37,732 nucleotides of DNA. Source: an uncultured bacterium. Lineage in GTDB: Bacteria; Omnitrophota; Omnitrophia; Omnitrophales; Aquincolibacteriaceae. The notes under the pieces are model-generated. The model was not told where the DNA came from and did not search any database. It worked only from the letters and a program-made list of their open reading frames with translations. The DNA lies in assembly GCA_964585045.1 (NCBI GenBank), contig CAZPCF010000001.1, positions 1 through 37,732 of the forward strand. The letters run 5' to 3'. Position numbers and translations under genes: made by a program. Below, piece after piece: positions 1-37,100 of this stretch (the stretch's first letter is position 1; each line of letters starts with the position of its first letter).

Positions 1-7
1 CTTTATT

Positions 8-2547: not shown

Positions 2548-2558
2548 GGGAATTCATA

Positions 2559-3767: not shown

Positions 3768-3863
3768 CGTTTGATTTGATATGCCTGATAATCGGTTTGT
3801 GCCCAACGATCGTAGGCGGGCTTTCGGGGTCACGGCTATATTTTTTGATGAAAGTAAAAAAGC

Positions 3864-4307: not shown

Positions 4308-4319
4308 ACCAAGTGTTAT

Positions 4320-5384: not shown

Positions 5385-5400
5385 CGTTGGAATTATCCGT

Positions 5401-6126
5401 ATGATATTAGCGAAAGATCAAACCGCGAACTTATCATCACCGATACTGAGCTTGGTGATTATGGCAAAAAATGAAGAGCAAAATATCACATCGGTCCTGT
5501 CGGAAATTTCAGAAGTTGTCCATGGCCATCTCCGAGAGCCCCACGAATTGTTTCTTGTGGACGGATATTCAGAGGATAATACCGTGAAGATCGCGGAACG
5601 GTTTGGGATAAGAACCATTCGTGTTCGTGGAGGGAAAGGCGCCGGCATCAGAAAAGCGCTGGAAGTGTCACGGGGAAAGTATATTTTGTTCATAGATGCG
5701 GACAAATCTCATGTTGCCATGGACATTCCCCGTTTGATGGCATCGATCCAGGAGCAAGACTGCGATATGGTGATAGCTTCAAGAGTCTTGGGGGGCAGTG
5801 AAGAGCTGGGAACAAGGAACTGGGACAATCTTTTGAGATTGTCAGGAAATCGCCTGGGCACCTTGATCATTAATCGAAGATGGGGTGTGAAATTAACAGA
5901 TGTTCAGAATGGTTTTCGGGTTATTAGGCGGAATACGGCCCTAGCGCTTGGCCTGAAAGAGGACACCTTCGCGATCGAGCAAGAGATGGTCATGAAGTGC
6001 CTGCAGCAAAACAAGATAGTCGCGGAAGTCCCAAGCTTTGAACGCAAGAGGCTTCATGGTGAATCGAAGATCCAAAAAAGAAAAGAATTTTGGAAATATC
6101 TATGGTGTCTGTTAAAGCATTTATAA
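5401..6126 (+). CDS. Family 2 glycosyltransferase (polyprenyl-phosphate sugar synthase-like)
   Basis: GT2-type motifs are LSLVIMAKNEEQNI, LVDGYSEDNT and ILFIDADKSH (DxD). I placed the start at ATG 5401. The longer ORF-track version (5245) would overlap the end of the SPASM gene. Confidence 0.85.
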   Translation: MILAKDQTANLSSPILSLVIMAKNEEQNITSVLSEISEVVHGHLREPHELFLVDGYSEDNTVKIAERFGIRTIRVRGGKGAGIRKALEVSRGKYILFIDADKSHVAMDIPRLMASIQEQDCDMVIASRVLGGSEELGTRNWDNLLRLSGNRLGTLIINRRWGVKLTDVQNGFRVIRRNTALALGLKEDTFAIEQEMVMKCLQQNKIVAEVPSFERKRLHGESKIQKRKEFWKYLWCLLKHL

Positions 6127-6166
6127 TCATGTCCGCTTAGAGCATTTGTTTCATCTGGAGACAAGT

Positions 6167-16116: not shown

Positions 16117-19100
16117 TTGCAGAAGGCTGATTATGTGTTACCTTTTCTTAAGATTTTAGAAATCAAGTTAGAGCCGAGGCAAATGAGAGCAGACCACAGA
16201 CCACAGACTACAGTCCGAGGACTATCTGCAGGCCATTTTTTGAGGGCTATTTCTCTCTCCACGGCCATTCTTTTTCTTTGCTCCGAAATCCTTACTTTCC
16301 CAGCCCAATCATTTGCTTATCAGTCTACAGACGGAAGATCGCAGACCGCAGGCCAGAATTTTTTGCTACAGTCTCCGGTCTCCGGTCTCCAGGTTGCTTT
16401 TTTCATTCCTCCCGAACTAGGCACGATAAGTGAAGCTTATCGCGGGGAACGGGGAACGGGGAACGAGGAACGAGAGGGTGCAAGCGTTAGCCGTTCCCCG
16501 TTAGCCGTTCCCCGGCACGACCGTACGGTCGTGCTCATCCAAGACGCTCACGCGGTCCCGGATGCCCAGAGATCTCTCATGAAACTCATCGAGCACTTCC
16601 AGTCAAAATACGGGATCCGTCAGGTTGCGCTGGAAGGAGCGGAAGGAAAGCTCGATCCAGAACTTTTTCGTAATTTTCCGGATAAGGAAAAGCTCGCTAA
16701 AGTTTTTAATAGTTATCTTGATTCAGGGGAACTCTCCGGAGCGGCTGTCGCGAGCGTGCTTTTGCCAACGCAGACAGATTACGTGGGCATTGAGGATTGG
16801 GATCTCTATCAGAAGGGGATCACCTCGTTCCTCAGGGGCCTTGAAAAGCAGGCCGATCTCAAATCTCAAATTTCAAATCTCAAAGAGAAACTGCAGGAGC
16901 TCAAAAAAAAGTATTATGCCCCCAAGGCGCTTGAGTTTGATGAGCATTATGAAAACTGGCGTCAAAAACAGGATGATTTTGCCGGGTTTTTAAACTATCT
17001 CGTTGAGACACTTCGATTTGACAGCAAACGTTATTCTTCGCTTGATGCCGTGATCCAAGGGCTTCGCCATGAAAACATCCCTGACAATTCAGCGCTGAAC
17101 CGGGAGATCAGAGCACTCGCTGCAAAGATCCAGCCTAAACTCGTGAACAAAGAGGTCCAAGCGAAATTCAACGAGCTCAAACAATCCCTGCAAACCGGGA
17201 ATGTTGGCAAAGTTGAATTTGCCCGGGGCCTGAAAGAGCTCTTCCCGGGAGACGATCTTGGGATATCCACGGAGTTGCTGGGGCTGATCGAAAACCATGA
17301 GGAGATCCTCCGGCTGCAGGGAGCTGAGTTTGTCAGTGAATTTGAGAAAGCCATCGCAGAGGCCAAAAGCTCGGTGTTTATTTCCGCGGATGAAAAAGAG
17401 ACGAATGCGCTCAGCGAACAGGTCATTATCCTTGAAAAGCTCACAAAGTTTGAATTGTCGAGGAGCGAGTGGAAAACACTTCAAGGGTACGGCGTACGGG
17501 GTACGGCGTACGGCGAACCCGTGGAAAATCCAATAGCCTCTTTCGTGCCCAGCGCTGATATCCCCTCTCTTCAGGCCAAAATTCTCATCCTGTGTCGGTC
17601 ACCCCTTATTGCCGACTTCTTTTCCTTCTATGCGATCGCTCTTCAACGTGAAGCCGTTTTTGTGAAGCATATTGAAAATTTACTCCGTACTCCGTACGCC
17701 GTACACGGTATGGTTGTTGTGGCCGGAGGCTTTCACACCGAAGGTCTCGCTCAGAAATTCAGGGAGCAAGGGATCTCCTACGTAGTGGTCTCGCCTCGGA
17801 TCAATGAGATCCCCAAAGATAGTCGTTATTTTGATTACATGAAGGGGCAGGTCTCATGGCGTGAGTATTTCAAACCCAAGAGCGGCAGGGTCGATCTCTA
17901 CGATGCGTTTGTCCAGGCAATGACGGAGCGCCTTATCTCACCAAGTACTAAGCACCAAATACCAAGTGCTCAGCACACGGTACAGAGGACATTCCGATCT
18001 AAGATCGATTTGAAAGACTGGAGAGATTCGGTTATTCGACGATTGGCCGCCGAAGGCCGCGTCGCAGAGCATTCGAAGTACACCCGTTATATCGACCAAC
18101 AGCTTGCCGGGCAGTCCGAAGAGTTCCAGGCCCTCAAGGAAAAATGGACGGCCAGACTCGAACAATTCATCGGAAAGCTCCAGCTTCTCGGTAAACAGAA
18201 TCAACTTACCGAAGCCAACATCGCGAGGCTCTTTACCGCGACGGCCAATTTTCCTGCTGCCACGGCCTCCCTTGTACCTGGTGCGAGTGTTCCTGTAAAT
18301 TTCGTTGATGATCAACGAGCGCAACGCGCAACGCGCAACGCGCAACGTGAAGAACAAAGGAAAAAATCGCTGAGCGGTGAGCGTAGTGCGTTGCCCGCGA
18401 AAGAGGTCCCCATTCCCAAAGAAGCCGTGCTTGATGAAACATCGGTCGAGCCCGGCCAAAGCTCAGCATCTGTTCGATCTGAGGTGCGGGTGGGTCAAGC
18501 TGAAGGAGCAATGAAGTTTGATGTCTCAGAAGTCCGTGAATTAGTGCTGAACGGCAAAGCGGTCACTCCCGATCAGTTTCACGCGAAAGTAACAGAAATG
18601 TCTCGAGGGGGCTTCATTTTTAATGCTGTTATCAGGGATCATGTATTGCGTTTGGGTGTCGCTCGCAGCAGCGTTGGGGGGCGGCGGATCTACCACGCCG
18701 AGATCAACGACCCTTCGAATCACGATGACGCCATTCTGGGCTTTGTTCCGGAGCCCGGGCCGTATCAAGAAATATCATTAGTCTATAAACGGTTCCGGTA
18801 TCCGGATCAGGAAGAACGGGAAGAACTCCAGGATCAGATGATTCTTTTTGCGAGAGTGTTTATACAGCAGGGGTTCCCTGGAACCACTTTTCTAGGCCGT
18901 GACACTCTGAATATTTTAGAAGGCATCGAGATGAAACTCAATGTCAAACGAGGAGAAGAAACGTTCGCAAAATTGGCGGCCTTACCGTTGTCGTCTGAGA
19001 AAGCGCGTTCCGGTCTGCTTGCAGAACGGGACGGATCCGTCCCGCTTTCACGGGCGGAGGCTCGGCAAAATGATGCTCAGACTGTTCCGGAGATACCCAC

Positions 19101-22100
19101 TACCGTTAATGCCACGCCACAAAATGCTGAGCGGCAGGCTGAACTTGAAAAATATTTGGCCGGCAAAACCCTCATTCATTCCGTTTTTGAAGGCGGGGGC
19201 GCGAAAGGTGTCGCGTATGTCGGGGCTCTCGAGGAACTTGAAAATAAAAAAATGTGGTTTAAGGAAGTGGCCGGTACCTCGGCGGGGGCGATCACCGCGT
19301 CCCTGATCGCGGCCGGCTACGAATATCCTAAGATCAAAGAGATCGTTTTCAACACAGATTTTAATCAATTCAAAGACAAGAGGTGGGGGATTGTCCCGCC
19401 GTGGCTGAACTTCCTGGTGTTTGGCGGGCTCTATCGCGGTCTGGTGTTCGAGAAATGGATCGCCGGTAAAATGAAAGAGAAACTAGGGTTCGAGCCGACG
19501 CTCAAGGATCTTCCGATCCCGCTTACGGTTATCACAAGCGATATTACCAATAAGAACATGCTCATCCTGAACAGGGAGACAGCGCCGGACCTTAAAGTCG
19601 CGGAAGCCGTGCGCATGTCGATGGGAATCCCGTTCTTTTTCGAAGTTTATAAATGGTTCGGGTTCTATAAAAAGTTCCCGCTTGCCGTGCGCCGCACCGT
19701 GGACGGGGGACTTCTCAGCAATTTCCCGCTTTTTATTTATGACAAAGCGGGCAGTAAAGGAGAGCCGGTGGTGGGGTTCATGCTTCAGGAGATCCCGCAC
19801 AAGAAAAAATCCTCCTGGATTACCAAGCTCCTGGCCCTTCTGAAATATCTCCCGCCGTTCCATATTGCGATCGCTGTGATCGATACCGCCCTTGACGGGC
19901 ACGACAACCGCCACATTGAAGATGATGTTTGGGCCAAAATCGTGAATATCCCGGTTGATGTCGGAACTTTGGATTTTGATCTGACGCTTGCTCAAAAAGA
20001 AGAGCTGGCTGCTCGCGGCAAGGAGGCTACCAAGAAGATCATAGGCCTTGCGATGCGAGGCGAAAAAGGCAAAGTCGATACGCCCGCGGAAAGACAGTTC
20101 GCGATCTTCAGATCGAAGGGGGGCCGCATCTTCTTCAAACCGGCCGGCTTTACCTGTGGTGTCCAGCTTGATCTCGTGGATTTTTATCTCGACGGCACTG
20201 GAGAGATCCAGTCGCATATCAAATTTCATCCCGAAAAAAGGATCCTCATCCAACCGAAGAATGTCTGGGAGACAAATCTCAAGAATTTGAGATCTCCTGA
20301 GGGTAAATGGATCGATGCTTCATTGGTCGAGGCTCTTGAGCCGATAACGAAAAACACGGTTTTTAATTTTGATACCCGTTTAAACAGGGATTTTATCCTC
20401 TTTGACCCCAGGACACGGCAGGAGATCGAGGTGATCGCCGTTGGGCCTGGCATCTCGCCGGCAGACAAGGACCAATTTGTTCTTAGCGTGGCATTCCCTC
20501 CGAGTGCGGAGATCATAAGATATAAAAATGATGTCAGGGTTGTGAGACGGGTTCCCGGCGATAGCCGTCCGGGTGTTGTACGGTCTGAAGTGCGGATGAG
20601 TCCGGCTGAACTCGGGGAGGAGTTTAAGAAAAACTTCCCGTTCGACCACGAGCTTATGCTGGCGATGTTCGGTGAAATGGTCGTAGAAGACGCTTTGCTT
20701 AAGGCCTTTTTTGATAAGTTGATCGCATCCGAACGACACCCCGTGTCAGAAGAACGGGCGCGGTACTTGGCATCACTTTTGCGGATCGACCAAGGGTGGG
20801 ACGAAGAACGTACCCTGACCTATCGCGTCAGACGAGGAAAAAAGACCGCCAGCGAAAGCATTCCTTATTCCGGGCTCCAGCAGGATTTTCTAGATTGGGC
20901 TGTGAAAATGAGGATTTCCCGGAGCGAATTCCCGCTTGCTTATGGCTTCTATGTTGAAGGGATCGAGGCGGAAAAGGAAAAGCAGGGGCCCAAAACGGTT
21001 TTTAAAGTAATGGCTGGGAACAAACTGGGGGATGCTATTTTCAAGAAAGTCGTTGAACGCCGGAAAGGACGGCCGAAACAACCTTTGACCTTCTATAAAG
21101 GAGACGTCGCGTCCGATGGCGATCTTCGCTGGCTGAAGACCTTAAAAACCACCAAAGATGTTCCTGCTGTTTTAAGCTCCTCCGGGATCGGCCTCAAGGA
21201 CCTCAGGCTTGGGTTTCATGACCCTGAGTTCCTCATGCAGGAAGATACTTATGACATCTTTCTTTTTACCACGGACCCTGTTTTTATCAATGAGGCCGCC
21301 AGTGTCGTCGAGAGCCGTCTTCCAACGACCACACCTGTCGGATACGCCCAGGTCCAGGTGCTGGATGGGGTTCCCACGGTCAGTGCTTTTCAGCCGCGCT
21401 TCTACCTGCCGCACTCGGTGGATCCCGCCCTGAAAGCGTATGTTGAAGGAAGCATGAAAGCGTTCGGCTTGCTGATCGAGGCCAATATCAAAGATATTCT
21501 GCGATCCAGGAAGCCTGTGACCAAGATCCGCTTTCTTACCCCAGGTTATTTCTTAAACGGACTTAAGGCGCAGGAAAGCACGATCCAGCATTATTATTTC
21601 ACGATACCAAAGTCCCTCGGGTATTCCCTCAAGGCCTTGACCGAACCCATCACGGGCGGTTATCAGCACATTAATTTTGTTTTTGAAAAAGAGGTCGCCT
21701 CTGATGTGTCCGCTTCACATGTCCGGCCAATCCGCTCCGAAACACGCAACACCATAACGGATTTAGCTGTGGTCGCGGAAGGCTTGAGTTTTGCCCTGCC
21801 ACATTATTTCGGGTCAAGCCTTATGGTGATCAGGGGCAACGCGGGACTCCTTGAATTGGCCCCAGACAGCAGGGAAAATATTGCAGCGATCGAAAAAGGT
21901 CTAAGAGATCTTACCGCTAAGCTTAAGATCCTCCGAGGCGAAACGATCACCGTTCTTCAGAACAAGGACGGGAAGAACTATGTCTGGCTTTCGAACGAAG
22001 GATTTTCAAGGAAGATCCTTCGGGGCCGGCGGTCTGTGACGCCGGAAGTCTGGCAGCAGCTCAAAAAGCAGCTTGGCCTTGATACGGTCTTTGCGGAATT

Positions 22101-25100
22101 GGCCGCGACGCTTGAACGGATCGGATCAAAAATAGAAAATCCGGATCTTTCGCCAGAGGACATTTCAACGATCCTGGAATCGTGCACATCTATTTCATCA
22201 TTAGTCCATTTAGCCACCGATAAGGCGAAGCAATTTGTTTCAACCCGGTCGGCACCGATCTTAAATGAGTCGGCACCGCCCAGTGAAGCGCGAGATTCAT
22301 TCTGGGACAAGCCGATTCAACTCCGTCCGAAATACGTGGCTGCCGGCATCGTGGGGATTATCGCTGTCGGGGTGTTGCTGGGGATCAAGTTGTCCGGGAT
22401 AACGTGGAATGAATTGAAATACATGACAACGACGCCTGTGGAGGTAAAACGTTTCATTACTGATGCCGCAAGAGTGGTCCGTGTTACCAAAGTTCGCAAG
22501 GTGGACAACGAGGCGGAATATGTGCCGATGTTCTCTTACCGGATCAAGCCAAGAAGTAAGTCGCTTTATACGGATGGAACCCGTTCCTGTGCCGCTTTGA
22601 TCATTGATGACCCGTCCGGTGGCCGACATTTTCTTGGGCATTTTGGAACGACCCAAAGTCCGGACTCGATCCGGGCGCTTATCACGGACAATTTCCAGGA
22701 ACTTGGCGGGTTGCAGGTCTATGTCTTAGAGGGGAATCAGCCGGGCATGGATCGGACCATTTTTGCTCCCGGCGCCTATGCAACCATCAAGAATATCTAC
22801 GCTACCTTGAAGGATCTCGGCCTGCTTTCCCAGACAAAATATATACCTAAGAACACAAATCCCCATTGGGGGAGCAGGATCTTTGTTCAGGACGGTGAAT
22901 TGTTCTTGCCCAACCATGATGCCGATTACCCGCCGCCCGATGATAGTGACGGTAGTACTAAATGGATCCTTGAATCGGAACCGCGAAGTGAATTACGGCA
23001 AGGGGAGTTTTCGGAACTTCTTTCTCAGATCCAGGAAAAAACAGTCGCGGGGGAAGAGCGGCTGAAAATTGAGAGGGTTGAACAGTGGAGCCGCGCTGTC
23101 CGGGAAGTTGCCGAAGCGAATTTTTATGACAAAACCGCAGAGCCTTTTATCTCGCATTGGGAATGGATCCTTGGCAGACCCGAAATCTGGGAGGTTCTTG
23201 CCGCGAGCGACAGCCTGGATCCATTGCTTGATGGGATAGAAAGCGGTCACTCGCCAAAAGCGATGCGGATGCCTAACCTGATCAAAAGCGCCATCTTTTT
23301 TAGCGTCCTTGGTCTTTCTACGTCGGCTCTTTTCGGCATGGAGGAGAGCTCCACGCTGGTTCGAGGCTTTGCAGTCTTCGCGCTCGTCCAAATTTTGCTC
23401 GTCTATGCCGTCGCAAGTGCGACTAAAGTCCGGCGGGTTCGCACCCAGCGGCAGGAACAATGGTTTCTTGAGACGATCCGGCCCAAGAAAATTCAGATCG
23501 AAAATCGCTTTCATGAGCTCGCGAAATTCTCGTGGGTCGACGACTCTCCCGAGGAACCCATTCTGAGACCCGGTCTCGGAACGGTGTCGGAGGCGCGCAG
23601 CGAGTTAAGGGAAGAGAAGGCGCTTGCGGCGATCCACAAATTTGCCCACGCCGCGAAAGAACAAGTGAAAGAGTTCGCGAAAAAAAGCATTGCGGCCAAG
23701 CAAAGAGTGGAATGGGAATTGCGGCGCCATGGAAAGATCGAGAACAAGGGATGGTTCGCCCAGGCGTTAGGTGACCTTAACGAAAGAGGTAGGGTGTTCG
23801 ACCAGCATGTGGACGAGTTTGTGGCGGACCGTGATGATGTGTTGAGCGTTGTGAACGGCGACCTACTAGCCAGTGTGGTGGAGCCGTTCTCATATGAATA
23901 CCAGGCCATGAAAAAGGAGCTCGGGTTGATTTTGAAGTTCGCCATGGGATCCGAAAAAGACGGTTTGGAGTGGACCTCTTTGGAACACCATCTCAACGAC
24001 TTGAGTTTGGTGCTTTTGGAAATGATGGATACTTTCGAGACCATAGCCATGCTTCCCGAACTGGATCTTCGCGATGGGATCGTGGACATGACGCTCAATC
24101 AGTCCGACCCAGCGTCGCAAGTGAACGAGAAGAAATACAGCGAGCAGCTTAAGCCGGTCTTCCAAAAAAGTTCCCATGTCTACGAGGAAGTCCTGAAACT
24201 CAAAGAAAACGGTGTCCTTTTCGAGATCTTTCCTTTTTTAAGACAGATTGCCGGATTTCAAAAAAGGGACGGATCGATCATTATCGATCATCTCCTTAAT
24301 CTGATCCGCTGCCTTGAGTGGATCGAAAAAGGGGACCGGGCGGCGTTTAATGAGGGAACTCTTGGCTGGGTTGTTGAAGCGCAGGAATTCCAGTTATATC
24401 AAAAGTTGTTCAGCGAAGCGTCCGCCGGAGAAGGGCGCGAGCTCCTCTATCTCGTGGCACTGCTGCACAATATCGGGGAGATCTCCCGTGTTGAGGACTG
24501 GAAAGACCGTGAAAGTTTCCAGGTCAGACAGGCTCTTTTTAAATTTGATCATTCCGAGGCCGGCGGGGCTTATCTCATCCGACCGATCATCCGCAGGAAA
24601 CTTGGTTTTTCTACCCAGGTCATGAAAGACCGGATGAAAATGGTGGAATGGCTCGTTTTTCACCAGTTTGCACTGGGGAATCTTTTCTTCGGTGAGCTTT
24701 CCCCAAGCCATCTTTTGGCCAAAATGGTGGCCATGCCTCCTGGCGTTGATCAGGCGAAGCTTTTCAAAATGCTGACGATCCTTTCCTTTGCCGATCTCCG
24801 GAACACTTACCGAGGCGCATACATTACCAAGTTCAAAACCAATTTCTATGCCGGCATGATGAATTTCGAAACCCTTTGGCTGATCTTACAACGATTGGAT
24901 GAATACCGGCTTCAACGCTTCATAACAGGTCCGGACGGTTCCCCGGACCCCCAAAAGCAGATCGCGCTTGACGAAATATTCTACGGAAAGCTTCCGGCCT
25001 CTTTACAGAACCATTTGAAGCATGTGTTGAGATACGGGGTCCACCGGTTCTATTTTGGCGCTTTTCTTTTCCGGTCCATCAAAGTTGAAACGCTCCTGAA

Positions 25101-28100
25101 GCTTCTTGTAACGATCAGCGCTTTCTTCAAAGCGCCCGGCGTCGAACTCCGGGACGTTGCTTTTACCACTCCGTCAGCCGAGGCGGAGACTGTTGCCGAC
25201 CAACTTGACGCTTTTTTTGACCCCCTATCTTTTCAAGAGATAGGATCTTTCTTCGGAATGGATGTCCACAAGATCCAAGGCGTTCTGGCCGAGCGGGGGC
25301 TTCCGGTGGAGATCCGGGAGGCTACCGAAGAACTGGTGATCGACACCAAAGCATTGCTGCGGTTTTCCACTCGTCCCGATTCAAAAAATCGGGCGGAAAT
25401 GCGGACAAACGAAATTGATCCAAAGACGCTGCCCGAGCGTGAGCGTGTCCGTCTCGTTCTGGAGTACATCAAAAGTAAAGGGCAAGCCGAGGCCGCCCGG
25501 GGAGATCTGCCCGGCGACCTTCTTCAGGAAATTTTTGAAAAATACGACATAAAGCTCAAGTCGACGAAGAAGGGTAAGAGTATCTCCTACGATTTCGTGG
25601 ATGCCTCTGCGAAGCCCAAGTCAAAACCAAGGATACAATCCAGCCCGAAAATTAAGCGAGACGGATCTGCGCTCGTAACAGCTAATGCAGAAATAGACCG
25701 GCAAAAGGCTCTTCTCGAGATCCAAAACTTGAAGCGAGCGGCCGGTCTAGCTATGCAACAGGCTCAAAAGAACCACGATCCGGACCAGTATGCCGTGGCC
25801 GTCGCAAAGCACGATGAAATCGCGGCCAGGTTGTCGGTGTTTGGGGCCCAGATGCAAAGTAAAATCAATTTTCACGTGCAGCAGGCTCGAAGGGCGAAAG
25901 AGCTTCGGGCCGAAGAAGAGGCAAGGCGTTTGATCTCACTGAGCAAGGAGGAACGGCAGGCTCTTGAAGACCAAGCAAGACAGGAAGTGTTGAAAGTTGA
26001 GGGCGAAAGGATCGCGAAAGAAAAGGTCCTTGCCGAAGAGCGCTTCCGGCTGGAACAGGAAAAGAAAAAACTGGAAGACGAACAGATCGCCAGGGAAGAA
26101 GCCTTCCGGAAGCAGCGTGAAGAAGAGGCCAGACAATTACTGGAAGCGGAACGGAAGGAACGCGAGGCGAAGGTCGCAAAGGCGAAGTTTGAGGCGCACA
26201 AATCCGGAGTTATTAAGCTGATCGAAGAAGCTGACGTGCGTCTAACAGCTTTCGATGCTAAGGATTTTACCGGTATTAAGAGCATCCGTGAGATGAAAGA
26301 AATCTCCTCCGCGATAAAAGCTGTGGAAGAATTCAGAGCTAAGTACGGGAAGGACGGGGATCTGGAGGGATACTACGGCATTTTTGGATCTTCCCTTGCG
26401 ACCAAAGAAGCGGATTACACGCAGTGGCGCCAGAATAACGAAAAGCTCCTGGCTATTATCACCCGTAACCCGGCTGTACTTCTCGACCGGATCAGATCGG
26501 CAGAAAAGAAACGTTCGCGCAACGAGCCGCTTGAACCGGTCGAAACCCGAAAGGCCGTCGAAGCTTCATTCAAGGTGATCATGGAGGCGGCCATGGCCGA
26601 TATTGGGTCGCGCGATACTTTTACGGAACAAGACGCCGCGACCATGGGGCTTTTAAAAAAAATCCGAGCTGCGTTGGACGTAAACCAGTCCACATCCCGC
26701 TCGGAGGTACGCCAAAAGAAGGGCTTGGGGAAGGAGCCCCCGGATGTTCTGGGTGTCCGAGAGGCAGATATTATCCCTCTGGACCTGAATGCGGATCAGA
26801 AGACAACATTTGAGACATTTTGGGATTATGAAAACGGTTGGGAAGGAGTAGCCCGTATTGAAGGGGGAGATCCTGCCTGGCTGGATTCGGAGGCAGGAGC
26901 GGAGCTTTACAAAAGGATTTCGCAAAAAACCCGCGTTCTGGCCGCGTATATCCTCTTCCACTTTCCTGACGGCGATAAACTTGTACTGCGCGAGATGGCG
27001 GATGCGAACGGCCGGCCTTTTTTTCAAACGGACGAACGAAAGTTAGCGTTTATCCTGAACGAAATGGCAAAAAATGCCATTGTCCACGGCCATAAACTGA
27101 ATCTGCAACTCCCCGTCTTTCTCCAGTGGAAGTTCGATCTGAAGGAACGCGTCTTCCGGATACGGGTCGTGAACGCCATTGAAAAAGACGACAGCCTGAT
27201 CCAAAAGATCGGCCCGGAAAAGCTCCGGGATATCCTGAAATTAAGCGGGGAGGGTAAGGCCGAAGAGGTCATCTACCACATGACGGGCGGAAATATTCCA
27301 GCTAGGAAGGACGTCGGAAATGCCACAGTCTCGGAGCTCGAGATTCGATTAATTATAAGATCGGAAGCGAGGGGGGAGGGGACCGAAGGAGCGGGGAAAT
27401 TGGATATCTCAACTGAATCTCGCGAAAGGGAAGGATATACATGGGTTAATGGCGATTACGTTCAATACGGTAAAAAGGGCGGTATTTGGATATCTGGAGA
27501 CACGGGAAAAGGTAAGAGTTTTCTCACGATTAAAATGATTGAGAGCGGTTTGCCATTCAAAGTTGTATCGTGTGGGGCATCTTATTTTAAGTCCCATGAA
27601 GAAGGCGGTAAGAGGATAATTCTCGGGTTGAGGGGTGAAATGAGCGCAAACACTCTTTATTCCAGGCTCCTCGGATACAAAAAAGTCACTCTCACGGAAG
27701 AAATGGTCGTCCCTTTGCGTTTCATAGTCACCCTTGATGACACGTACGAAGATTCATACATAAGGAAAGAGTTAAAAGGTGAGGGATCGGCTGAAAAAGC
27801 GGACATCAGGATAATAAACCTGACCGATCTTGATGTCAGTAGGGATTGGGAAGAGGCAGTGCGCAGAATACGCGAGGTGGTAGAGGGTACGTCAAGAAAA
27901 GTAAAATCCGTAAAATTCGTGGATGGTTCAGAAAATGCCAGCTCCCAGCCGCGTGTTGAAACAGCGCAGGCAACAGCGGGCGTGCTTCCGAGAGGCATAT
28001 CCCTACAAATACCTCGATCCGAGGTGAGAAGCCAGAATCAGATCCAGTCAGAGATTGACCGGGTGACGGAGCTGAAGAATGGCGCGCGGATGCGGGCCCG

Positions 28101-31100
28101 GCAATTCCTGCAGTATAACCGTGAGTTGATCCAATGGTTCCTGGCATTGAAGGACGCGCAGGGAAAGATCACTGAGGAATCGAAAGAGGAGCAGACGCTT
28201 ATTCTGGAGAAGATCCGTGATTATGCGGACGTCCTAAGAGAAATCGCCGGAAATATCCGTCCGGATGTCGGCGAAGGGATCGTGGGCGAGCAGACGCGCT
28301 ACCAAAAGCTCAATGACTATGCGGTTAAGCCGTCTTTGGGGATCCGGCAGGAAGAAGTGACGATCGCCCTGACCGCAGAATCCCGGAAGCTCAAAGAAGA
28401 TATGGCGGGACTTCAGAAGCAATTTCTCGAAGCTCATCGCGCTAAAGATCCGGGACGACTCCGAAGCCTGAATGAGCAAGCCGTCGCGCTTTACAAGGCG
28501 CGTCTTAAAGCGCAGCTTCTCCAGGCATCTTCTTATCTGCAAGAACAAAAGATCGACACAACGGCTTTATTGACCATCCTGACAGCTATTCGCATCGGTT
28601 ATCTCAAAATTTCTCATGAATATGGTTGGCGGATCCGCCGCGCGCTGGGAGAAGCCGCGATCCAGAAGATCCAGGTGGTCGGACGTGAAGGGGATGTTGC
28701 CCAGGTCTACGACTATGAGAACTTTAAAATGGCAACAGTCCCGGACGGCAAAGGCGAGCAGAATCCGGTGACTATTTTCCAGGACGTCTGGGTCCGGAAA
28801 GACCTTGAAGACGGCAGTTTCACCTACCAGCCTGAAAAAAGGCCATTTGTTTTTAAGGATCTCAAGACAGCGGTCCGGAGATCTTTCCATATCCTCTTGA
28901 ATCAGGAAGTTGATTTTGCTCAGGTCTATGACCGGATCAATGATCTCGACTATATCGTGGACCTTTTGAGGACCGACGGCGATGAGATCCCGGAATATTA
29001 TTTGGAAGATATCCGGGAATCGGTGGATTTCATCATGAACGCCCGCCGGGGCAGTTTGACGCGGGGCCATGTGGATGAAAAAGGGAATGCTGCCGCGAAC
29101 GTCAGAGGCGGCATGTTCGAACTTGAAGCGCGACATACGGCCAGAGCTACTGAAATGTTCGGAGCTGCCAAAAAAGAACTTGAGACGCGGTTGATTGTTC
29201 TTGCGGGCAAAAAAGCAGGGATCAGTTCCCAGGCGCAATATTTGATCCACCGCTACCGGCGTGATGAAACCTCGAGGGCTATGCGGGAACTTGGATCTCT
29301 GCTCGAGGAGCAAAATTTTCAGGCAGCGTATCAGCTTCTCAGAGTTCTCTACAAAACCCATTATCTTCACAAAGCTTCTGAAGAAAGCCAATATGCTTCG
29401 CTCCAGTGGCACGTGATCGATCTCGGAGTCTCGCTCAAGAGACTTGCGTTGAAGAAAGATCGCCCGTCTGCAAGCGTTCAAGGGAATATCCTTCGTTATG
29501 TCCGAGAAAACATCCGGCGAATTCAGATCATGGCTGGCGCGAATCTCAGTGATCCGCCTTCGCCGTTGCGCAACGAAGGACGGATCCATTCTGCTTCGCG
29601 GGCGGAAATGCGCTTGAAGCAACCTCTCAGGGCGGTGGTGTTCGACATCGGTGGAGTGATCTTCGACCTCGATTTTAAAAAAATGGCTCAGGCGTTAATA
29701 AATGCCGGTGTACGCATCAAGACCGTCGAAGAGATCATTGCCCTGTCCGTTTCCTCAGATGTTTATAAGGCTTTGGAACGCGATGAAATATCTCCAGAAG
29801 CTTTTTACGCTGCTCTTTGCGGTGCGTTAGGGATCGGGATTCTTTCCTATGAAGAGTTCGTCAGGATCTGGACCGATATCTTTACGCCGAAACCCGAAAC
29901 GGTCGAACTGATCAAACAGGCCAGGGAAACCGGCGCTAAAATCTTCTTTTTGACCGACGCCAATCGTCTCCATACCCAATATCTAAAAAAACATTACCCG
30001 GATGTCTTTGCGCTCGCCGATCACGTTTTTCCTTCTTATGAGCTTGGCCTTCGGAAAGGGGATGGTTCTAGGGTTTTTCAGGTGGTGAGTGAAAAACTCG
30101 AACAGGAGTATGGGATCAAGCACGGTGAATATGTCTTTTTTGATGACCGGAACGATAATGTCGCTGCGGCGAACAGCGTAGGTTTTCCTGCAATGGTCTT
30201 TGAATCGGCGCAAGCCGCACGAGAAGAACTTGCTAAGTCGGAAGAAGTTACGCCGGACGAAATACAAAGCGATCTTACAAAGATAGATCTTGCCGGAAAA
30301 GGATCCTCCAGGATCACAAGCATTGATGAAGCCGGGTTGCTTGTGACGGGGAAAAGACAAGAGGTCTCTGAGCCATGGACAAATCGGCGGGCCCGGCTAA
30401 CCTACATCTTAAGGGAGGGTTTGAAACCGTACCGGGATGTTCTCCCGGCATTAACAGATTCGTTGAAGGACGGCGCACGTCACGGCGGGAAATACATATC
30501 CTTCAGTATGGTGTCGCCCCGGTTTGGTTATGCGGGTACAAGTACGGACTATCTTAATTATGGCCCTTCGTCTGGAAAGAACGGTTACTCTCTTTACAAC
30601 GTGGCATTCATTCTTGATCCTGCTTATGTCCGCCGGCACCAGGAGGATTTTCACGCGGTCGGAGAGGCCTTTGCGGCGAACGGGACGATGCACAAGGCTT
30701 ATATTGATTCAAAAGGTGAGGTTCTAGGCGGCTTTACGTATCGCTCTGGGATCGCAGAACAGATCACAAGGCCTGCTCCTTATCCTGATGAAGTGGTGGT
30801 AGACCGGAATATCCCTCCGGAAGCTTTCGGCGCGATCATTGCTCACGATGCCTATGCAAAAGAGATCCGGGACATTATTGTCACGGAGTGTCCCCAAATG
30901 TCGATCCGGATATTCAACCCGAAGGGCGAGATTCTCTTTGATATTAAGAGCGATACAACAACAACGTTGCGTGCGACTTCGGAAGGAAAGCGCAGTGAGG
31001 TTCGGTCTGAGCCGGCTCCTGAGGGAACTCCTACGGCCGGTTTTAATGAGGGAACCCGGCAACAACTTCTGAAGTCGATCGCCCATTTCATCCAGGTGAT

Positions 31101-34100
31101 AGATACATCATCCGAAGCGCAATTAAAAGCCATGGAGCAGGTCGTGATCAATCACATGGGGAAATTCGATAAGGCCGAGGATATTTTGGCGCTCATGGGC
31201 GCCCTTGTTGGTATCTGGGATCGTCTCTCAAAAATATCCGGTGAGCGTTCCGCGTCCGAAACGCAATTAAAAGCCATGGAGCAGTTCGTGATCAATCACA
31301 TGGGGAAATTCGATAAGGCCGAGGATATCTTGGCGCTCATGGGCGCCCTTGTTGGTATCTGGGATCGTCTCTCAAAAATATCCGGTGCGCTTCCCGCAAA
31401 AAATAGTTTGTCCGAAACGCAATTAAAGAGCATAGAGCAATTCGTGTTCGACAGTATGAAAAAATCTGATAAGCCCGAGGATATTTTGGCGTTCATGAGT
31501 GTTCTTGTTGATGTTTGGGTCCGCTTCTCAAAAATACCCGACGTTTCTCCCAGTATCTATAAAGAAAGGATCGGGTATTTGATCGGAAATATTTTTAAGG
31601 GGGAGAGGCTACTCGATAAGGATACGAATCAGAATGATATCAGCTTGTTTGAAAAGTATGTCGGAGCGGCAACCACCTCGGACATTATAACGCTAAATGA
31701 CATACTGAGGGAATTGGCCGATCGTATGCCGGAAATTGAACCGGGTGGGTTGACGGAAGAGGAATTAAAGCTCACGCGGGCGCTCGCCGACTATGAGCTT
31801 TTGGAAAAAAGAAAAACGATAGGTTCCACGATCGGGCGGAAGATCGATGATTTGAAACGCCTGGGAGAAGAGGCCTCCCGGAAAGCCTCGGAGCCTCCGG
31901 TTTCGGACAATGTCGGGTCTTCCGAGGCAGATTTGCAGTCCGAACCCCCGGATTTTGAGCGCAATGCTCTCGGCATCCCATCGGCCCCTTTGCCGCCATC
32001 AAATGTTTTGGACGGCCGCGATCGACTTGAGGCGGCGGTGGCGATCATGGGACACGGTGGGCCGCTTGATATAGCGGATCAGATACATAATGCAGGTCTT
32101 CTGCAACTTATGGATTATGTCAAGGCCCTGAAAGGGGACGTCGACTTCGAAAAAGAGAAGGCATTAGAACAGGCTCTCTTGCAAAAGGCCCGGCTCTATT
32201 ACTCTTTTGCTTATGCAATGCAAAAATTAAATCGTCCGGAAGAAACCAATGAAGAATTTCTAACTTTGGTCACAGCGGGTTTACGGCAGGAAGAAGCTCC
32301 GGAAGTGCAGCGAATTTTCCGGCGGTTGGTGGAAAACGGCCTAGATCCAAAAGAACGGGAGAAGGCCTTTATTGCATGGACCCGGGAGGTTGATGGTCTT
32401 TTGCAGGGGTTGCGTTCGGAAGTGGAGCGGATCGATCCCGAAAAATTTTCTGCCGGAGAAATTGCCCGCGTTCAAGAGGCTGGAAATATATATAACTATG
32501 GTGATGAATCTGTCGGCCGGTTCGAGGGCATCAAACGAAATTACATCGCCCTAGCAAAAAGATGGCAGTTTAATTTTAAGGCCATGGCTTCTTATCTGGC
32601 GCCGGAAGGAACAGCGGATTTTCAAGAGTTGAATCTGCCTGCTTGGATTTTGCAACGTACGTGGGAAACCAAACAGGAGGCGCACAGGGTTGTTGCGCGG
32701 CCGCCCGTTGGGCGGCTGCCCGGTGTTTTCGTGAACGAAGAGTTGCTGCATCTTGCGATCGAAAGGATCATTTCAAACGGCTTTCGTGCGATCAATGAGC
32801 AAGCATCTTCTTTACCCGGTGGATTTGAAAAGGTGGACATCGATACGGAAGCTATCCGTGGTATCGATGGCCGGGAAAATGTCCAGATCAGGATCTTGAG
32901 CCCCGGTGTTATTCCGGACAGCAAGCTTAAAATAAATGAAGCTCGAGGCATGCAGGAGTTGTTCGTCTTGGATCCAAAGCGTTCGCATTTCAATCATAAC
33001 ATTGCAATGCCATTCGTAGGACAAGCCATCAAAGGCCTCGGGGGGAAGATCTTTGCGGAAAATATCACCACGGGTGGCCAATCATATGCCGTAGTGACAA
33101 TAGAATTGCCGGCCGGTCGCGCGGACCGCCTTGCGAAGGCAGGCGAGTCTCGCTCTGAAGTCCGGGCGGAACTGCGTTCAGGAAACTCTGAGGGCCCGAA
33201 TATTGGGTCGGCGAGCGAGGATCTACGGGTACGAAATTACGAGGAAGTGAAGGTCGCCGAAAGGATAATGTTGCGTTCAGGCGAGAAGGTAAGGACATTT
33301 ACTGTCCGGGGTTCGTTTCATCTTACCGACGACACTACTTTAAACCTTGCTGTCGACGAAGAAAGCGGAAAATTATACGTCATAAGAAAACTTCTGACCG
33401 AAGAAGATGAAGATCATTGCTCATACGTCCCTAAAGTAATGGAAAAGTTGAAGGGCTATGAGGGCGTATACCAAGCCGAATGGATGGTAAAAGCCGACGA
33501 CTCGAACGGGTGGGACGGCAGGGATGCTTCACTGAATGGGGCTATAGTTTATCCTTATATCCCGGGGAAGGACCTCGCCAGTATTTTCGAAGGGTATAAA
33601 AAGCTGCCGCCTGCGGCGTATTTCAGCGAATTGCTGGATATCGTCATCCGGGTGGCCGACATCGGCGCGTACATCGAAGCAAAAGGCATTTACGATGTTT
33701 GGAGTATAAAGCCGGAAAATATCATGATCACCCCCGACGGCAAGCTTGTCCTTATCGACTATACCCGGAAAAAAATAAACCCCCTATCCAGCATAGAATT
33801 CCTCCTTTACGATTCTACGGATGGTATTCACATGAAAGGAATTGATGGCGTATTGCCTACGCTGAAGTTCGTATCGGATCCCGCGCTGAACCGCCAGATC
33901 GTCAGCCGCCTTACTGCCGCACACCGGAAAGTGAAGGCCAATAGTTACGAAAACATAGGTCAGTTCAGCGAAGAGTTAAAAGGAGTAAAGGCTCTCATGG
34001 AAGCAGGGGATAGCCCGGGAAGTGCCACGCCGCAGCCGCAAGGCGATGTCCGTTCCGAGGTGCGTGGGGAAAAAGATTTGCTATGGACGAAACCCGCGCT

Positions 34101-37100
34101 TGATGCCAAACCGGATCCAGTAGCGGTTGTGAACCGTCAATTTAAATGGTGGACCAAACGCACTCCCGCGTGGACAGAAGAAGAAATACTTAAAATCCCG
34201 GAAGTGATAAAGGCGCTTTATGACGCAGGGATCAATTTGCGCGGCGGATCCATTCAAATGGATAAAAGCGAAGAAGGAAAAAAGACCGTGCAAAGCGTAC
34301 TCGGGACGCCGAGGACAGCATCGGCCATTTATACGAAAACGCTGCAACTTTACAAAGATAAAGGAAAATGGCCCGCGGCTTTGCGTGAAGCAGGGATCGA
34401 CCCGGCGATCCTTCCGAATTATCCCGGTGCGATCGAGGAACGGAACATGAAGTTCGCTCAGGAGGAGCAGGCAGGAAAACGCTCTGCCCCGTCTTTGGAT
34501 ACCGAAGAACGGATTCGTCCCGGTTCTAAAAATCGGGCGGAAGTACGGGTAGAAAAATCCAAAGGGAAACAACCATCGCTAGCTAATCTGATTAGGACCG
34601 TTGCCACAGCGCCCATGCGGTATGCAGGGAATTCCATAAAAACGGATTATGGAGCCGTCGCGTTTCAAAAGCTTTACGGAATGCTGAGAGAGGATCCGGA
34701 AGCAGTGTTGAGCGGCATGGCGGGCCTTTCTGCCGCGCTTCTGCGGCAGTTCAGGAATAGCCGGCGGGGGAAGAGCTTGATCTCGTTTTTCCCTGTGTTG
34801 AACGAATCGCAATCATCCCAGCCCCGTTCGGAAGTTCGAGAAAAAAAATATGATGCCGATTGGCTCCGAAACGCGGCTTTTCTTTTCGACAGTACGGATC
34901 CTGAACTCCGGGCGGTTCTGAATGAAGTTTTGGGCGATGATTCCGAGGCGCTGACACCGAGACAGCGCGAGGTTCTCCGCAAGCGGTATTGGGAGGGGAT
35001 GACGATCTCTCAGATCGCGGAAGAAGAAGGAAAAAGCAGGAATGCTATATCCGATGTCGCCTGGAAAGCGATCCTCCGCCTCCGGCATTATCTTGATGGA
35101 AAAGGCTATTTCAAATTGAATTCCTCCGCGGATTTTCAATATCTGTTAATGGGTAAACAAAGTCGCGCGGCGCGTGCTGAGGTGCGCTCCGAACCGTCTG
35201 AGGCAAAGATTCCTGTTGAGACAAAGACGCAGTTGGATAAAGAAGAGGCTCGCCCGGCAGAGGCACAGCCTGTCGCCGAGGTAAAGAAACCCGAAGAGAT
35301 CGTGCCAGTTCAGGAGACGCCGCTTCCTGTATCCCTGCCCATCCTACCGTTGGTAGAAACAGCCAAACCTGTTGATCAGCTGCAAACGGAGAGAGCCGAA
35401 GTGCCTTCTCAAGTTGAGCCTGCCGCCGTTGAAGAAATTGTTCCGGCACCCAAGATTAAGAAAGCAAGATCCCAGAAAGCTTCTGCCAAGGAAAAAGCCG
35501 GTGACCGGATCCTTTCCAAAGAGCTGGCGATCGCCCTGCTCCAGGAACTAGGGATCGCTTTTCCAAGAAATTCTGAGGAAGTCGCGGAGGTTTTTCTACG
35601 GCTTTACGAGGACAATTATATGAGGGCTATTGAGGCGTTAACATGGAGCGATCCCGCCAAGGCGGTCGCCAGGGCAGAACGGTTGATAGAATTGATCGAA
35701 AGCCTAACGGAAAAAACTCCGAATATGCCATCCAGAATTTATAAAAGGTTCGAGGCCCTTATAGCGACTCTCAAATGGTTTCGTGATGCAGCCAAGTTCG
35801 CGGGCTCGATAGAACAGCCGACGCTTATGGACCGTGCGGTGGGTGATGATCCGGACCTTGTGATCGAGCAGGTGACAAACATGATCGAAAAGGTCGAGGA
35901 GGGTAGAGAGAGATTTTCCGCTCCGCCGGTCGGGTTCGACCGGGCCCTCAAGGCCTGGCAGGACAGGTTATTGGGGATCCAGCAGCTGGCGATGAACAGC
36001 AAAGATGAAGTTGATACCGTGCGCTCCGAATCGTTGGATTCAGTAAACGCCGGAAAAGAGGAGGATGCTTTCACGAAGGATCAAAAAAGGGACCTTGTCA
36101 GGGAGGCCCTTGAAGAAATGGGGATCCAGGAAGTCGAGATGAAAAAATTGAATCTGGTGCGGATCTTCGATTTTTGTAACGGGCCGGGGGTCGAAGCCGC
36201 CGAAAAGCTGAACGATTATTTTGACGGACGCGGATTTCCTGGTCTTTCGGATCAGGTGGACGATCTCATTTTGAGAATGAAGGCGGTTATTGCACAGGAG
36301 AACGAAGATGAGGAAGATACCGGGGGGAACGATTATGGTTTTGTCCGCAGTGAAACAAGGTTGCAGCAAGTTTACGCGGGTGTGCTGGGGACGGTGTTGC
36401 GTCAAGATCCGGACGGGAAGAATCTAGTCCGCGAATTTACAGAAGAAGTAAGAGAAGCTGGGGTGGAGATGGTGTCCCAGGGTCTTTGGACTACTTTCAA
36501 CAATATCGTTCTTCCCGAGGCTATGGCGGCGATGACGGTCAGTGATACGAATGTTCAGGTGGCGGGTTACGATGTGCTTGAAAATGTGCTACGCCAGAAG
36601 GACCTGAGCCGCGAGACGTTGGACAGGATCGCCGAGCAGATGTTCAATGACTCCTTGAAAGATCTTGTCGATGCGATCCTGAAGCGGGAGATCGGCGGCA
36701 TGGCACCGGTGGTGTTCTACTCTTCGGAGATGAAGACGCGGCTGATCCATTTTATTGAAACGGTTCAGCAAGGATTCGAGTCGATTGGGGATGTGACAGG
36801 CGAGAATTACAGGATCACCCTTGTTTCTGCGAACAAGGCCGAGCTTAGAATATTGAAAACCGAACTTTCGAAACGCGGGGCGTTGCGCGGCGTGCAATTT
36901 ATCGAAGATAAAGGATTAAACACTGTTGCCAGGGAACTGGCGTCATCTGTCATCCGCCACCCTGTTTTCGGAGTGCGGTTTGGCATTTTCTTTCCCGAGA
37001 GTGGTCTCGGCCAAAATGTAACTTGGCAATGGGTGGTCCGCTCCGAGATTCCCAAGGAATATGCCGTTCTTCTTCTCCCAGCTTTAAGTAGATACTTTGC

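Follow-up and report, generated by a model that had tools for sequence, protein, structure and literature searches.

The 37,732-nucleotide (nt) stretch of DNA analyzed here (the window; contig CAZPCF010000001.1, from an uncultured Omnitrophota bacterium) carries a giant open reading frame (ORF) at positions 16117-37260 of the forward strand, on which all features of the encoded protein described below are located. Upstream of it lie genes for a sulfatase, three radical-SAM enzymes, a GT2 glycosyltransferase, a TPR/YfiO-like protein, HolA, MurJ, and UvrC. The ORF contains no internal stop codons, and it encodes 7,047 amino acids (aa) when counted from the first TTG. An ATG at 16183, which is 22 codons downstream from the TTG at 16117, is probably the true start, giving a protein of 7,025 aa, because the relatives of this protein begin at the corresponding methionine. 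The whole protein holds only 11 cysteines, and the contig ends 472 nt past the stop codon. An earlier note, made from the letters of the window, had claimed that a conserved pentapeptide, R-[S/A]-E-x-R, recurs along the protein and divides it into discrete modules, and had proposed that it might be a processing site of a bacterial polyprotein or a docking tag. The data presented below solidly establish the pentapeptide as a delimiter of modules. As judged from the sequences, the further proposal that the delimiters are processing sites of a modular polyprotein, which are cut by a sequence-specific endopeptidase with the N-terminal domain of the same protein as the prime candidate, has in our view about an even chance of being correct.

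The N-terminus is formed by MRADHRPQTTVRGLSAGHFLRAISLSTAILFLCSEILTFPAQSFA, a Sec-type signal peptide or anchor with an AxA-like end and an invariant cysteine (16183-16317; read from the sequence, without a signal-peptide predictor). This segment is followed by the core of module 1 (16456-17949), an N-terminal domain with a large helical insert, called s1 below, which may be a hydrolase of the Tiki/ChaN superfamily and is our candidate for the processing peptidase. Its catalytic-like pattern comprises the D-x-H element IQDAH with an invariant histidine (16537-16551), the dipeptide EG with an invariant glutamate 28 residues past this histidine (16633-16638), and GGFH with the second invariant histidine, in the part of s1 where relatives match the Pfam ChaN/Tiki model (17725-17736). 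Module 1 ends with motif 1, RSEVR (18475-18489, aa 787), which is found at the same place in the related loci L002, L004, and L006-L008. Next come motif 2, RAEAR (19051-19065, aa 979), a patatin-like phospholipase domain lying entirely within module 3 (19183-19731), motif 3, RSEVR (20581-20595, aa 1489), and motif 4, RSETR (21733-21747, aa 1873), the homologous junction of which in L002 joins module 1 to module 5.

Downstream, a decayed copy of the motif, PSEAR (22279-22293, aa 2055), has proline in place of the first arginine, and it is followed by a hydrophobic transmembrane-like segment (22321-22377; Kyte-Doolittle window only). PSEAR lies close to the end of the homology with a 171-aa module of L002 and P0002, which is closed there by an intact RSELR, and a transmembrane-like helix follows both the decayed copy in the window and the intact copy of that module. 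The existence of a decayed copy suggests that delimiters can be lost, with the fusion of two modules as the result. Two further adjoining transmembrane-like segments (23278-23403) are located in module 6, between motif 5, RSELR (22984-22998, aa 2290), and motif 6, RSELR (23596-23610, aa 2494). Motif 7, RAEMR (25390-25404, aa 3092), forms the last 15 nt of a 34-nt repeat at 25371-25404, and motifs 8, RSEVR (26698-26712, aa 3528), and 9, RSEAR (27358-27372, aa 3748), are kept before and after, respectively, the homologue of module 9 in L002.

The most conserved module, module 11 (s11; 28030-29613), with 71-79% identity in close relatives, is preceded by motif 10, RSEVR (28015-28029, aa 3967), and ends with motif 11, RAEMR (29599-29613, aa 4495), which directly precedes the HAD module also in L002, L003, and L004. 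In the window the HAD phosphatase domain (29629-30183) begins 5 residues past motif 11, at Pfam model position 2. The remaining part contains motif 12, RSEVR (30991-31005, aa 4959), motifs 13 and 14, which share one arginine in RSEVRAELR (33151-33177, aa 5679 and 5683), motif 15, RSEVR (34051-34065, aa 5979), motif 16, RAEVR (34534-34548, aa 6140), which makes up the final 15 nt of the other 34-nt repeat copy (34515-34548), and motif 17, RSEVR (34825-34839, aa 6237). Close double copies, 11-26 residues apart from start to start, also occur in L003, L006, and P0008. A sigma-70 region 4 helix-turn-helix (34948-35088) is located in the 116-aa module 18, which is closed by motif 18, RAEVR (35173-35187, aa 6353), and motif 19, RSETR (36346-36360, aa 6744), is followed by the C-terminal module (36361-37257), before which it is also kept in P0002. 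All 19 copies that the earlier note had listed, with the overlapping pair at 33151/33163 included, are thus present and in frame at the positions given there, which corrects the number of 18 in its title.

The number of R[SA]ExR copies was compared with that expected by chance. The composition of the giant ORF (R 6.8%, S+A 15.1%, E 8.9%) predicts 0.44 copies in the protein, and 2,000 shuffles of its residues gave a mean of 0.45 copies and a maximum of 4, in agreement with the earlier estimate of one or fewer. The motif is also sharp, because loosening any one of its positions added just 1-3 near-misses in the giant protein, and the other five reading frames contain 0-2 copies. The 11 remaining ORFs of the window (5,021 aa) are free of the motif, and no copy was found in 18,808 aa of neighbor genes from the window and four syntenic loci, where 0.77 would be expected. 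The density comparison between the giant ORF and ordinary genes, which had been suggested in the earlier note and was made here for the window and the four syntenic loci, gives 19 copies versus none. The shuffles together with the motif-free neighbor genes rule out a compositional artefact.

The codons of the motif were analyzed in 42 copies from three genomes. The data showed that the codon choice at each position mirrors the overall usage of the gene; all six arginine codons and both serine codon families are used, GAA and GAG occur in a ratio of 27:15, and each of the window's eight RSEVR copies has its own set of codons. As the codons vary freely, selection acts on the peptide, which is what the earlier note had concluded from the window. 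The one exception at the DNA level is the context RP[D/G]SKNRAE[M/V]R, which the earlier note had seen to be shared by two copies. It is real, and it corresponds to a 34-nt direct repeat with 88% identity (25371-25404 and 34515-34548) that consists of 19 nt of linker and the motif, ending at the last codon of the motif. This pair is the sole DNA-level similarity among the 19 copies, and it may be a trace of linker-mediated shuffling of modules. The degenerate codons, and the restriction of the 34-nt repeat to one pair, led us to reject the idea that a DNA repeat gave rise to the motif.

The codon and residue data also bear on a regulatory role of the motif, either as a site where an embedded kinase-like module would phosphorylate the serine, or as a GAGGT-containing ribosome-binding site inside the ORF, at which translation would start anew for each module. 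The R-S-E sequence resembles a basophilic or acidophilic kinase context, and GAGGT is present in 6 of the 19 copies of the window. On the other side, alanine, which is no phospho-acceptor, replaces serine in 6 of the 19 window copies and in 31 of 32 copies in the related protein P0020, the glutamate codons follow the background with GAA as the main one, and position 4 is often not valine. A regulatory modification or internal initiation is hence highly improbable, and both the phosphorylation site and the internal Shine-Dalgarno sequence were rejected, on the basis of the alanine substitutions and of the preference for GAA, respectively.

Relatives of the giant protein were then collected. A word-indexed protein search with the C-terminal 5,000 aa found only the protein itself at E <= 1e-10, and such a search with module 11 gave no match, itself included. 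A genome scan gave two loci and a metagenome scan one locus, with partial giant ORFs containing 11, 12, and 13 motif copies. When module 11 (aa 3972-4499) was used as the query of an exhaustive HMMER search, 33 proteins were obtained, and 17 of these exceed 3,500 aa. In total there are more than 20 related Omnitrophota giants of 3.5-11.5 kaa. The motif-bearing giants among the HMMER matches carry 4-32 copies of R[SA]ExR each versus 0.2-0.65 expected, and four syntenic giants have 5-11 copies within their first ~3,200 aa. When enriched gapped 5-mers were determined de novo, RSE.R or RAE.R came out on top in almost every related giant. Module 11 proteins that do not contain s1 (P0022, P0025, and short stand-alone forms) do not contain the motif either. 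The pentapeptide is a feature that defines a whole family of Omnitrophota giant proteins, which goes beyond what the earlier note had claimed.

The residue at the x position and the choice between serine and alanine are homogeneous within one protein and differ among proteins. The motif copies are RSELR in 9 of 9 cases in P0007, in 16 of 18 in P0009 (where leucine occupies position 4 in 17 of 18), and in 12 of 13 in P0012, RSEVR in 10 of 11 in P0010, and they have alanine at position 2 in 31 of 32 cases in P0020. The most distinct member is P0024 (4,632 aa), with one R[SA]ExR only and 11 copies of G[AGS]R[LF][AGS], mostly SGARLA, versus 0.11 expected (aa 598, 857, 1356, 2230, 2254, 2820, 3132, 3326, 3571, 4052, and 4287). 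The Pfam domains of P0024 sit between these copies, which places the substitute at module boundaries. This swap indicates that the sequence of the delimiter is replaceable while its role stays. Lineage variants combined with free codon choice suggest a specific reader that co-evolves with the site of each lineage. Such lineage-specific variants of sites are seen with the proteases of viral polyproteins.

To describe the relation between the motif and the modules, the protein was compared with its relatives. BLAST alignments of the window protein run in blocks from motif to motif. Among 476 alignment blocks between 18 giants, 55% begin 25 aa or less from a motif, as compared to 11% at random placement, and an internal motif is present in 19.5% versus 71% at random placement. 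The arrangement of modules differs among relatives at these boundaries. In L002 module 1 is joined straight to module 5, with modules 2-4, including patatin, being absent, and L004 has its counterparts of modules 3 and 4 in reverse order. In L006, which has a UvrC 86% identical to that of the window, module 1 is the only common module. These data confirm the delimiter claim of the earlier note in that motif positions are kept in relatives, homology blocks are bounded by motifs, and modules are inserted, deleted, and swapped there.

The positions of domains agree with this pattern, as no significant Pfam domain crosses a motif in the five proteins that were checked. Three of the domains named in the earlier note, patatin, HAD, and sigma-70 region 4, were recovered by Pfam, and its statement that domains never cross a motif holds for them; its HD, HprK-like, and kinase-like assignments were not confirmed, and the match to a histidine-kinase-like ATPase in the giant protein was weak (E 0.022). 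The HPr domain of P0007 begins 4 residues past a motif, at Pfam model position 2, and the RidA domain of P0024 begins 7 residues past a substitute motif, at Pfam model position 3. The fact that domains begin near the start of their profiles right after a motif suggests that the modules correspond to complete stand-alone proteins. As regards the question raised in the earlier note, whether modules exist as separate genes, module 11 homologues do occur as stand-alone genes of 389-1,463 aa that contain no motif. The cargo of the family looks like housekeeping enzymes, and includes HAD, HPr, RidA, PfkB, glycogen synthase and phosphorylase, and transketolase.

The shuffling of modules could also mean that the motif is a junction signal or a scar of recombination between linkers, with the conserved peptide as a by-product. 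This would be consistent with the gain, loss, and permutation of modules exactly at the motif, with the 34-nt repeat that two linkers of the window share and that ends at the last codon of the motif, and with the linker strings that are repeated twice in L003 (RSEVR EPIQPAR; ERSEAPV RAEVR). On the other hand, 15 nt that are degenerate at nearly every third position leave most copies without DNA homology, the similarity is confined to one pair among 19 copies, and a scar would decay, yet the motif is invariant across proteins that are only 20-30% identical. These points make it quite improbable that a recombination scar accounts for the conservation of the motif. The linkers may nevertheless be the place where the shuffling happens, so recombination could add to the processing explanation as a route.

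To characterize the surroundings of the motif, 231 motif sites were compared. Over the 8 residues that flank the motif on each side, the share of hydrophobic residues is about 0.22, down from 0.33, and the residues S, P, G, T, and A are enriched. In alignments the conservation starts a few residues past one motif and stops 10-25 residues before the next, and the linkers contain insertions and deletions, so that their lengths vary while the motif stays. A structure model was obtained with AlphaFold for aa 3950-4520 from an alignment of 25 sequences (a single-sequence run on module 11 reached a pLDDT of only 38.6 and was unusable). The model contains a confident core at residues 23-526 with a mean pLDDT of 74.9, and both flanking motifs (model residues 18-22 and 546-550) are located in tails with pLDDT about 30; the value for motif 10 is about 33, with the first helix beginning 2 residues on, and that for motif 11 about 30. 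Hence, for module 11, the structure check proposed in the earlier note places both motifs in low-confidence tails outside the predicted fold, and the model supports the exposure of the motif in flexible linkers. Three of the observations which the earlier note had named as speaking against its claim were thus not encountered, as the motif is not a compositional artefact, its positions are conserved, and in the model of module 11 it was not found inside a folded core.

The location of the motif in polar, low-confidence linkers is also what would be expected from a passive linker element, in which a charged R/E/R cap or hinge keeps neighboring modules apart and no specific reader exists. Its alternation of charged and small or hydrophobic residues could favor an extended soluble segment. 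A passive element would tolerate substitutions, yet near-misses are almost absent, and each protein keeps its own variant, with one lineage having swapped to G-A-R-L-A at the same positions. Moreover, we know of no comparable strict pentapeptide in the linkers of ordinary multidomain proteins. Hence, we regard a purely passive role as improbable.

The exposed, peptide-level, and lineage-specific nature of the site fits equally well with an uncleaved tag for recognition or docking. In such an arrangement a partner, be it module 11 or s1, a chaperone, or an export machine, would bind each linker, and this binding would fold the string of modules onto a hub, hand it along in export, or recruit a common factor, with the chain remaining intact. 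Module 11 would suit a role as scaffold, since it is the most conserved module and a large helical bundle with neither an enzymatic signature nor a fold match. Its predicted fold is a bundle of about 500 aa with a β-hairpin insert, for which a PDB profile search was empty, and a Foldseek search with the model gave nothing significant, the best matches being vinculin (E 0.04) and AhlB and XaxA (E 0.4-1.2). AhlB and XaxA are α-pore-forming toxins of the ClyA type. In these searches module 11 was not recognizable as a protease or as any other known protein. Some of its stand-alone homologues (P0016 and P0017) have a hydrophobic N-terminal stretch resembling a membrane anchor.

The docking tag would also be in line with the special export that Omnitrophota giant proteins are thought to require (10.1101/2023.11.21.568195). 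It leaves unexplained why module starts coincide with the starts of stand-alone proteins, why the order of modules is free, and why membrane-anchor-like segments come right after some motifs, as in RSELR-GAWKKAAAIAVIAGA in L002. In addition, module 11 homologues exist without a motif-bearing partner in the same protein, and five residues are short for stable docking. These points make a docking tag less probable than the processing of a polyprotein, which we prefer as the explanation, yet the tag is a serious rival to it.

According to the processing explanation, the giant ORF would be translated into a modular polyprotein that consists of a signal peptide, s1, an array of modules that differs from lineage to lineage, and a C-terminal module. 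The array would be composed of autonomous enzyme, membrane, and DNA-binding modules, and the short flexible linkers between them would expose R-[S/A]-E-x-R as a recognition site. A sequence-specific endopeptidase would bind the motif in an extended conformation and cut at or beside it, which would release the modules as separate proteins. The peptidase would most likely co-evolve with the site variant of each lineage, its prime candidate being s1 of the same protein. We infer the cutting itself, its position, and the enzyme responsible from the pattern of the delimiters. This explanation is compatible with all the findings, including a short site consensus between modules that is uniform within a genome, as is typical of polyproteins. 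The residue directly after the motif provides a weak hint in favor of processing, because bacterial N-degron residues (LFWYRK) account for 13% versus 33% at this position (p = 4e-13), and serine, threonine, and glutamate are enriched.

The s1 domain was examined as the candidate peptidase. Every full-length member of the family, including P0024, begins with a Sec-type signal peptide, which is followed by s1. These signal peptides have a positive n-region, a hydrophobic core, and an invariant cysteine, and end with QALA|Q or QSFA|Y. In 14 aligned s1 sequences, which are 18-47% identical to that of the window, a histidine, a glutamate, and a second histidine are invariant or nearly so. They form the pattern D-x-H, glutamate at +27 to +30 (+24 in P0024), and then GGFH or GGYH, which is preceded by a helical insert of 320-470 residues. 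A search for this D-x-H...E...H pattern found it in 15 of 16 giants. Three of the 14 s1 sequences matched PF04187 ("Haem-binding uptake, Tiki superfamily, ChaN"), with the best E value of 3.7e-5.

The Tiki superfamily includes the Wnt proteases TIKI1/2, RRSP, TraB/PrgY, erythromycin esterases, and ChaN, which is described as a lipoprotein. The s1 domain is similar to members of this superfamily in that it has two histidine motifs and an acidic residue at the spacing found in RRSP, and similar to ChaN in that it also follows a signal peptide with an invariant cysteine. It differs in that it is split by the helical insert and that its first acidic residue is aspartate, not glutamate. RRSP is the Tiki-family sequence-specific endopeptidase of MARTX toxins, with the catalytic residues E3900, H3902, E3930, and H4030 (PMC6254334). 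The distance from histidine to glutamate in s1 of the window, 28 residues, is the same as that from H3902 to E3930 in RRSP, the equivalence being drawn by spacing alone. On the basis of these sequence features it is plausible that s1 is an embedded peptidase and a candidate member of the Tiki superfamily.

Several observations weigh against cleavage by s1, or against cleavage in general. The best PF04187 score was 24.3 bits, which is below the cut-off of 27.7, and it covered model positions 158-203 of 213 only. The window's own s1 gave no PF04187 match in the Pfam scan, and PDB searches with s1 profiles gave chance matches only. The Tiki superfamily also contains members which are not proteases, such as ChaN, erythromycin esterases, and PMT. 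The topology raises a further difficulty, because s1 is located after the signal peptide and a crude prediction places three transmembrane-like segments at aa 2069-2429, therefore most sites would be across the membrane from s1; modules 7-20 and their 13 motifs would be cytoplasmic and beyond the reach of a secreted s1. Pfam and NCBIfam scans revealed no other protease domain in the giant protein. To our knowledge, the motif does not fit the specificity of any known protease. Finally, the depletion of hydrophobic residues after the motif partly reflects the general composition of the linkers.

Other candidates for the peptidase were also considered. None of the 19 scanned segments of the protein (with the 4-residue spacer of the overlapping copies left out) matched a peptidase family at E <= 1. 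A search for HExxH in the protein of the window gave only the looser H[ED]xxH, as HDNRH at aa 1262 in module 3, C-terminal to patatin. An HExxH that is not present in the window's protein was observed around IFIHEAGHYSLARS in P0010 (7,839 aa), where its hydrophobic context resembles a site-2 (M50) metalloprotease module. The specificities of several known proteases were compared with the motif and rejected, as none of them fits: furin (RxK/RR), S1P (RxxL), 3C-like proteases (E or Q), phage prohead proteases ([SAG]xE and [LI]xE), the MARTX cysteine protease domain (CPD; Leu), and C39 peptidases (GG).

The fullest form of the processing explanation would be that these are self-processing Omnitrophota polyproteins of a class that had gone unnoticed, in which a secreted Tiki-type head cuts its own tail of 3.5-11.5 kaa at R[SA]ExR, or at the substitute delimiter of a lineage, and releases a rapidly reshuffled set of 10-30 proteins (enzymes as well as membrane and DNA-binding proteins), maybe as an effector kit. 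We consider this as a tentative possibility. The giant gene may then be compared to an operon translated as one chain, and the released proteins may be effectors delivered to the prey or host of ultra-small predatory or epibiotic bacteria.

The proposed mechanism most resembles MARTX toxins and viral polyproteins, although the giant protein is a member of neither. In MARTX toxins unstructured linkers between effector domains are cut by an embedded protease, and the effector arrays are shuffled among strains. Both are very large proteins with conserved ends and a variable central array of unrelated domains; in the family described here the conserved parts are the s1 head, module 11, and the C-terminal end, and close relatives have different cargo modules. 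The giant protein differs from MARTX toxins in several respects, because RTX glycine-rich repeats gave no Pfam or NCBIfam match in it, and the inositol-phosphate-activated CPD was not detected. MARTX linkers are cut after leucine without a strict pentapeptide, in contrast to the strict motif of the giants, and the Omnitrophota cargo is housekeeping-like and preceded by a Sec-type signal peptide, as opposed to the type I secretion of MARTX.

The likeness to viral polyproteins, such as those processed by picornavirus 3C, flavivirus NS2B-NS3, and potyvirus NIa, lies in the single ORF with a short site between products. In these viruses the protease is embedded in the polyprotein, and the sites follow a single consensus per genome, which changes from lineage to lineage. 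On the other hand, the giant gene is chromosomal with conserved synteny, its module set is hypervariable and not fixed, and both its protease and its cleavage are putative.

Gingipain-type precursors of Porphyromonas gingivalis (RgpA, Kgp, and HagA) are cut after arginine or lysine, between catalytic and adhesin domains, by their own protease. They are similar to the proposed polyproteins as bacterial secreted precursors that are processed between domains, and different in that a C25 peptidase domain is not present here and that gingipain precursors give few products and have no strict pentapeptide. The polymorphic toxins CdiA and Rhs have a single demarcation motif, such as VENN, ahead of one variable C-terminal toxin with an immunity gene behind it, unlike the 19 delimiters along the whole giant protein, and in the latter the C-terminal module is a conserved and not a variable part.

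Giant proteins have been described in the same phylum before, where those of the Archaeovorin type exceed 30,000 aa and contain SecA-DEAD, C39 or S8 peptidase, glycosyltransferase, and NUDIX domains (West-Roberts et al., 10.1101/2023.11.21.568195). The protein of the window shares with them the phylum, the great length, the association with the membrane, and the mixed enzyme domains, and it differs in its length of 7,047 aa and in that none of SecA-DEAD, C39/S8, glycosyltransferase, or NUDIX was detected in it. Post-translational cleavage of Omnitrophota giants was proposed in that work, with the cleavage points then unknown (10.1101/2023.11.21.568195). The linker motif, a polyprotein, and the s1 head are mentioned neither in 10.1101/2023.11.21.568195 nor in a preprint of 2026 about long proteins of Omnitrophota, and a text search of the literature gave nothing relevant for RSEVR or for polyprotein combined with Omnitroph. 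Hence, what is new here is the delimiter, the type of the candidate protease, and the protein family, while a processed multi-domain precursor is of a known kind.

Few gene products are as poorly understood as giant bacterial proteins, and a strict delimiter that is kept across a family provides an explicit, testable rule for parsing the Omnitrophota giants. It splits them into modules suited for structure prediction and annotation, it predicts exact termini for proteomics, and it is accompanied by a candidate protease with three named residues to mutate. If the cleavage is true, bacteria would have their own equivalent of viral polyproteins, with a new way to co-express and quickly reshuffle sets of proteins and a new protease specificity that is possibly useful as a tool. 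Even if the chain stays uncut, a constant pentapeptide in proteins otherwise 20-30% identical implies an unknown reader.

The closest named homologues of the adjacent UvrC, with 82-87% identity, are all annotated as Candidatus Omnitrophota, and the family member P0020 is annotated as Omnitrophota. The gene order TPR/YfiO (bamD-like), LptE, HolA, RpsT, MurJ, UvrC, and giant gene is kept on five other Omnitrophota contigs, and the giant genes at those syntenic places were called at 5,395, 5,913, 8,827, and 11,506 aa. The giant gene following uvrC is hypervariable, as it ranges from 5,395 to 11,506 aa where UvrC is 71-86% identical to that of the window (positions 11768 onward in L005/L006, 11795 onward in L007, and 12055 onward in L008). 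In L006, L008, and L009 only the s1 head is recognizably common with the giant of the window (about 45% identity in L006). Such rapid change would be in line with a function of the giant gene in conflict or host interaction.

Upstream of this conserved order, the first ~8 kb of the window (1-7627, with the sulfatase, the three radical-SAM, and the GT2 genes) has a G+C content of 0.40-0.45 versus 0.50-0.56 from 7872 onward. In the syntenic relatives (L005-L009) a ComEC-like gene occupies that place, upstream of the TPR/YfiO gene, and the low-G+C part is probably a lineage-specific insertion. Inside module 13 of the giant protein, three tandem copies of a unit of ~143-156 nt (~48 aa) with 100%, 96%, and 71% identity are located at 31111-31553.

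The extreme C-terminus of the giant protein (37234-37257, ...EKQFAASA) has a counterpart in the relatives, as all 14 full-length members of the family end with [AS]A-COOH. The ends observed were AASA, KQAA, MAAA, SAAA, WSA, RASA, LSA, SSAA, ISA, YAAA, and AKSA. As far as can be read from these sequences, the [AS]A end could be recognized by a PDZ domain or a tail-specific protease, serve for secretion, or act as a degron. These ends come after an amphipathic stretch, and the C-terminal module is otherwise poorly conserved.

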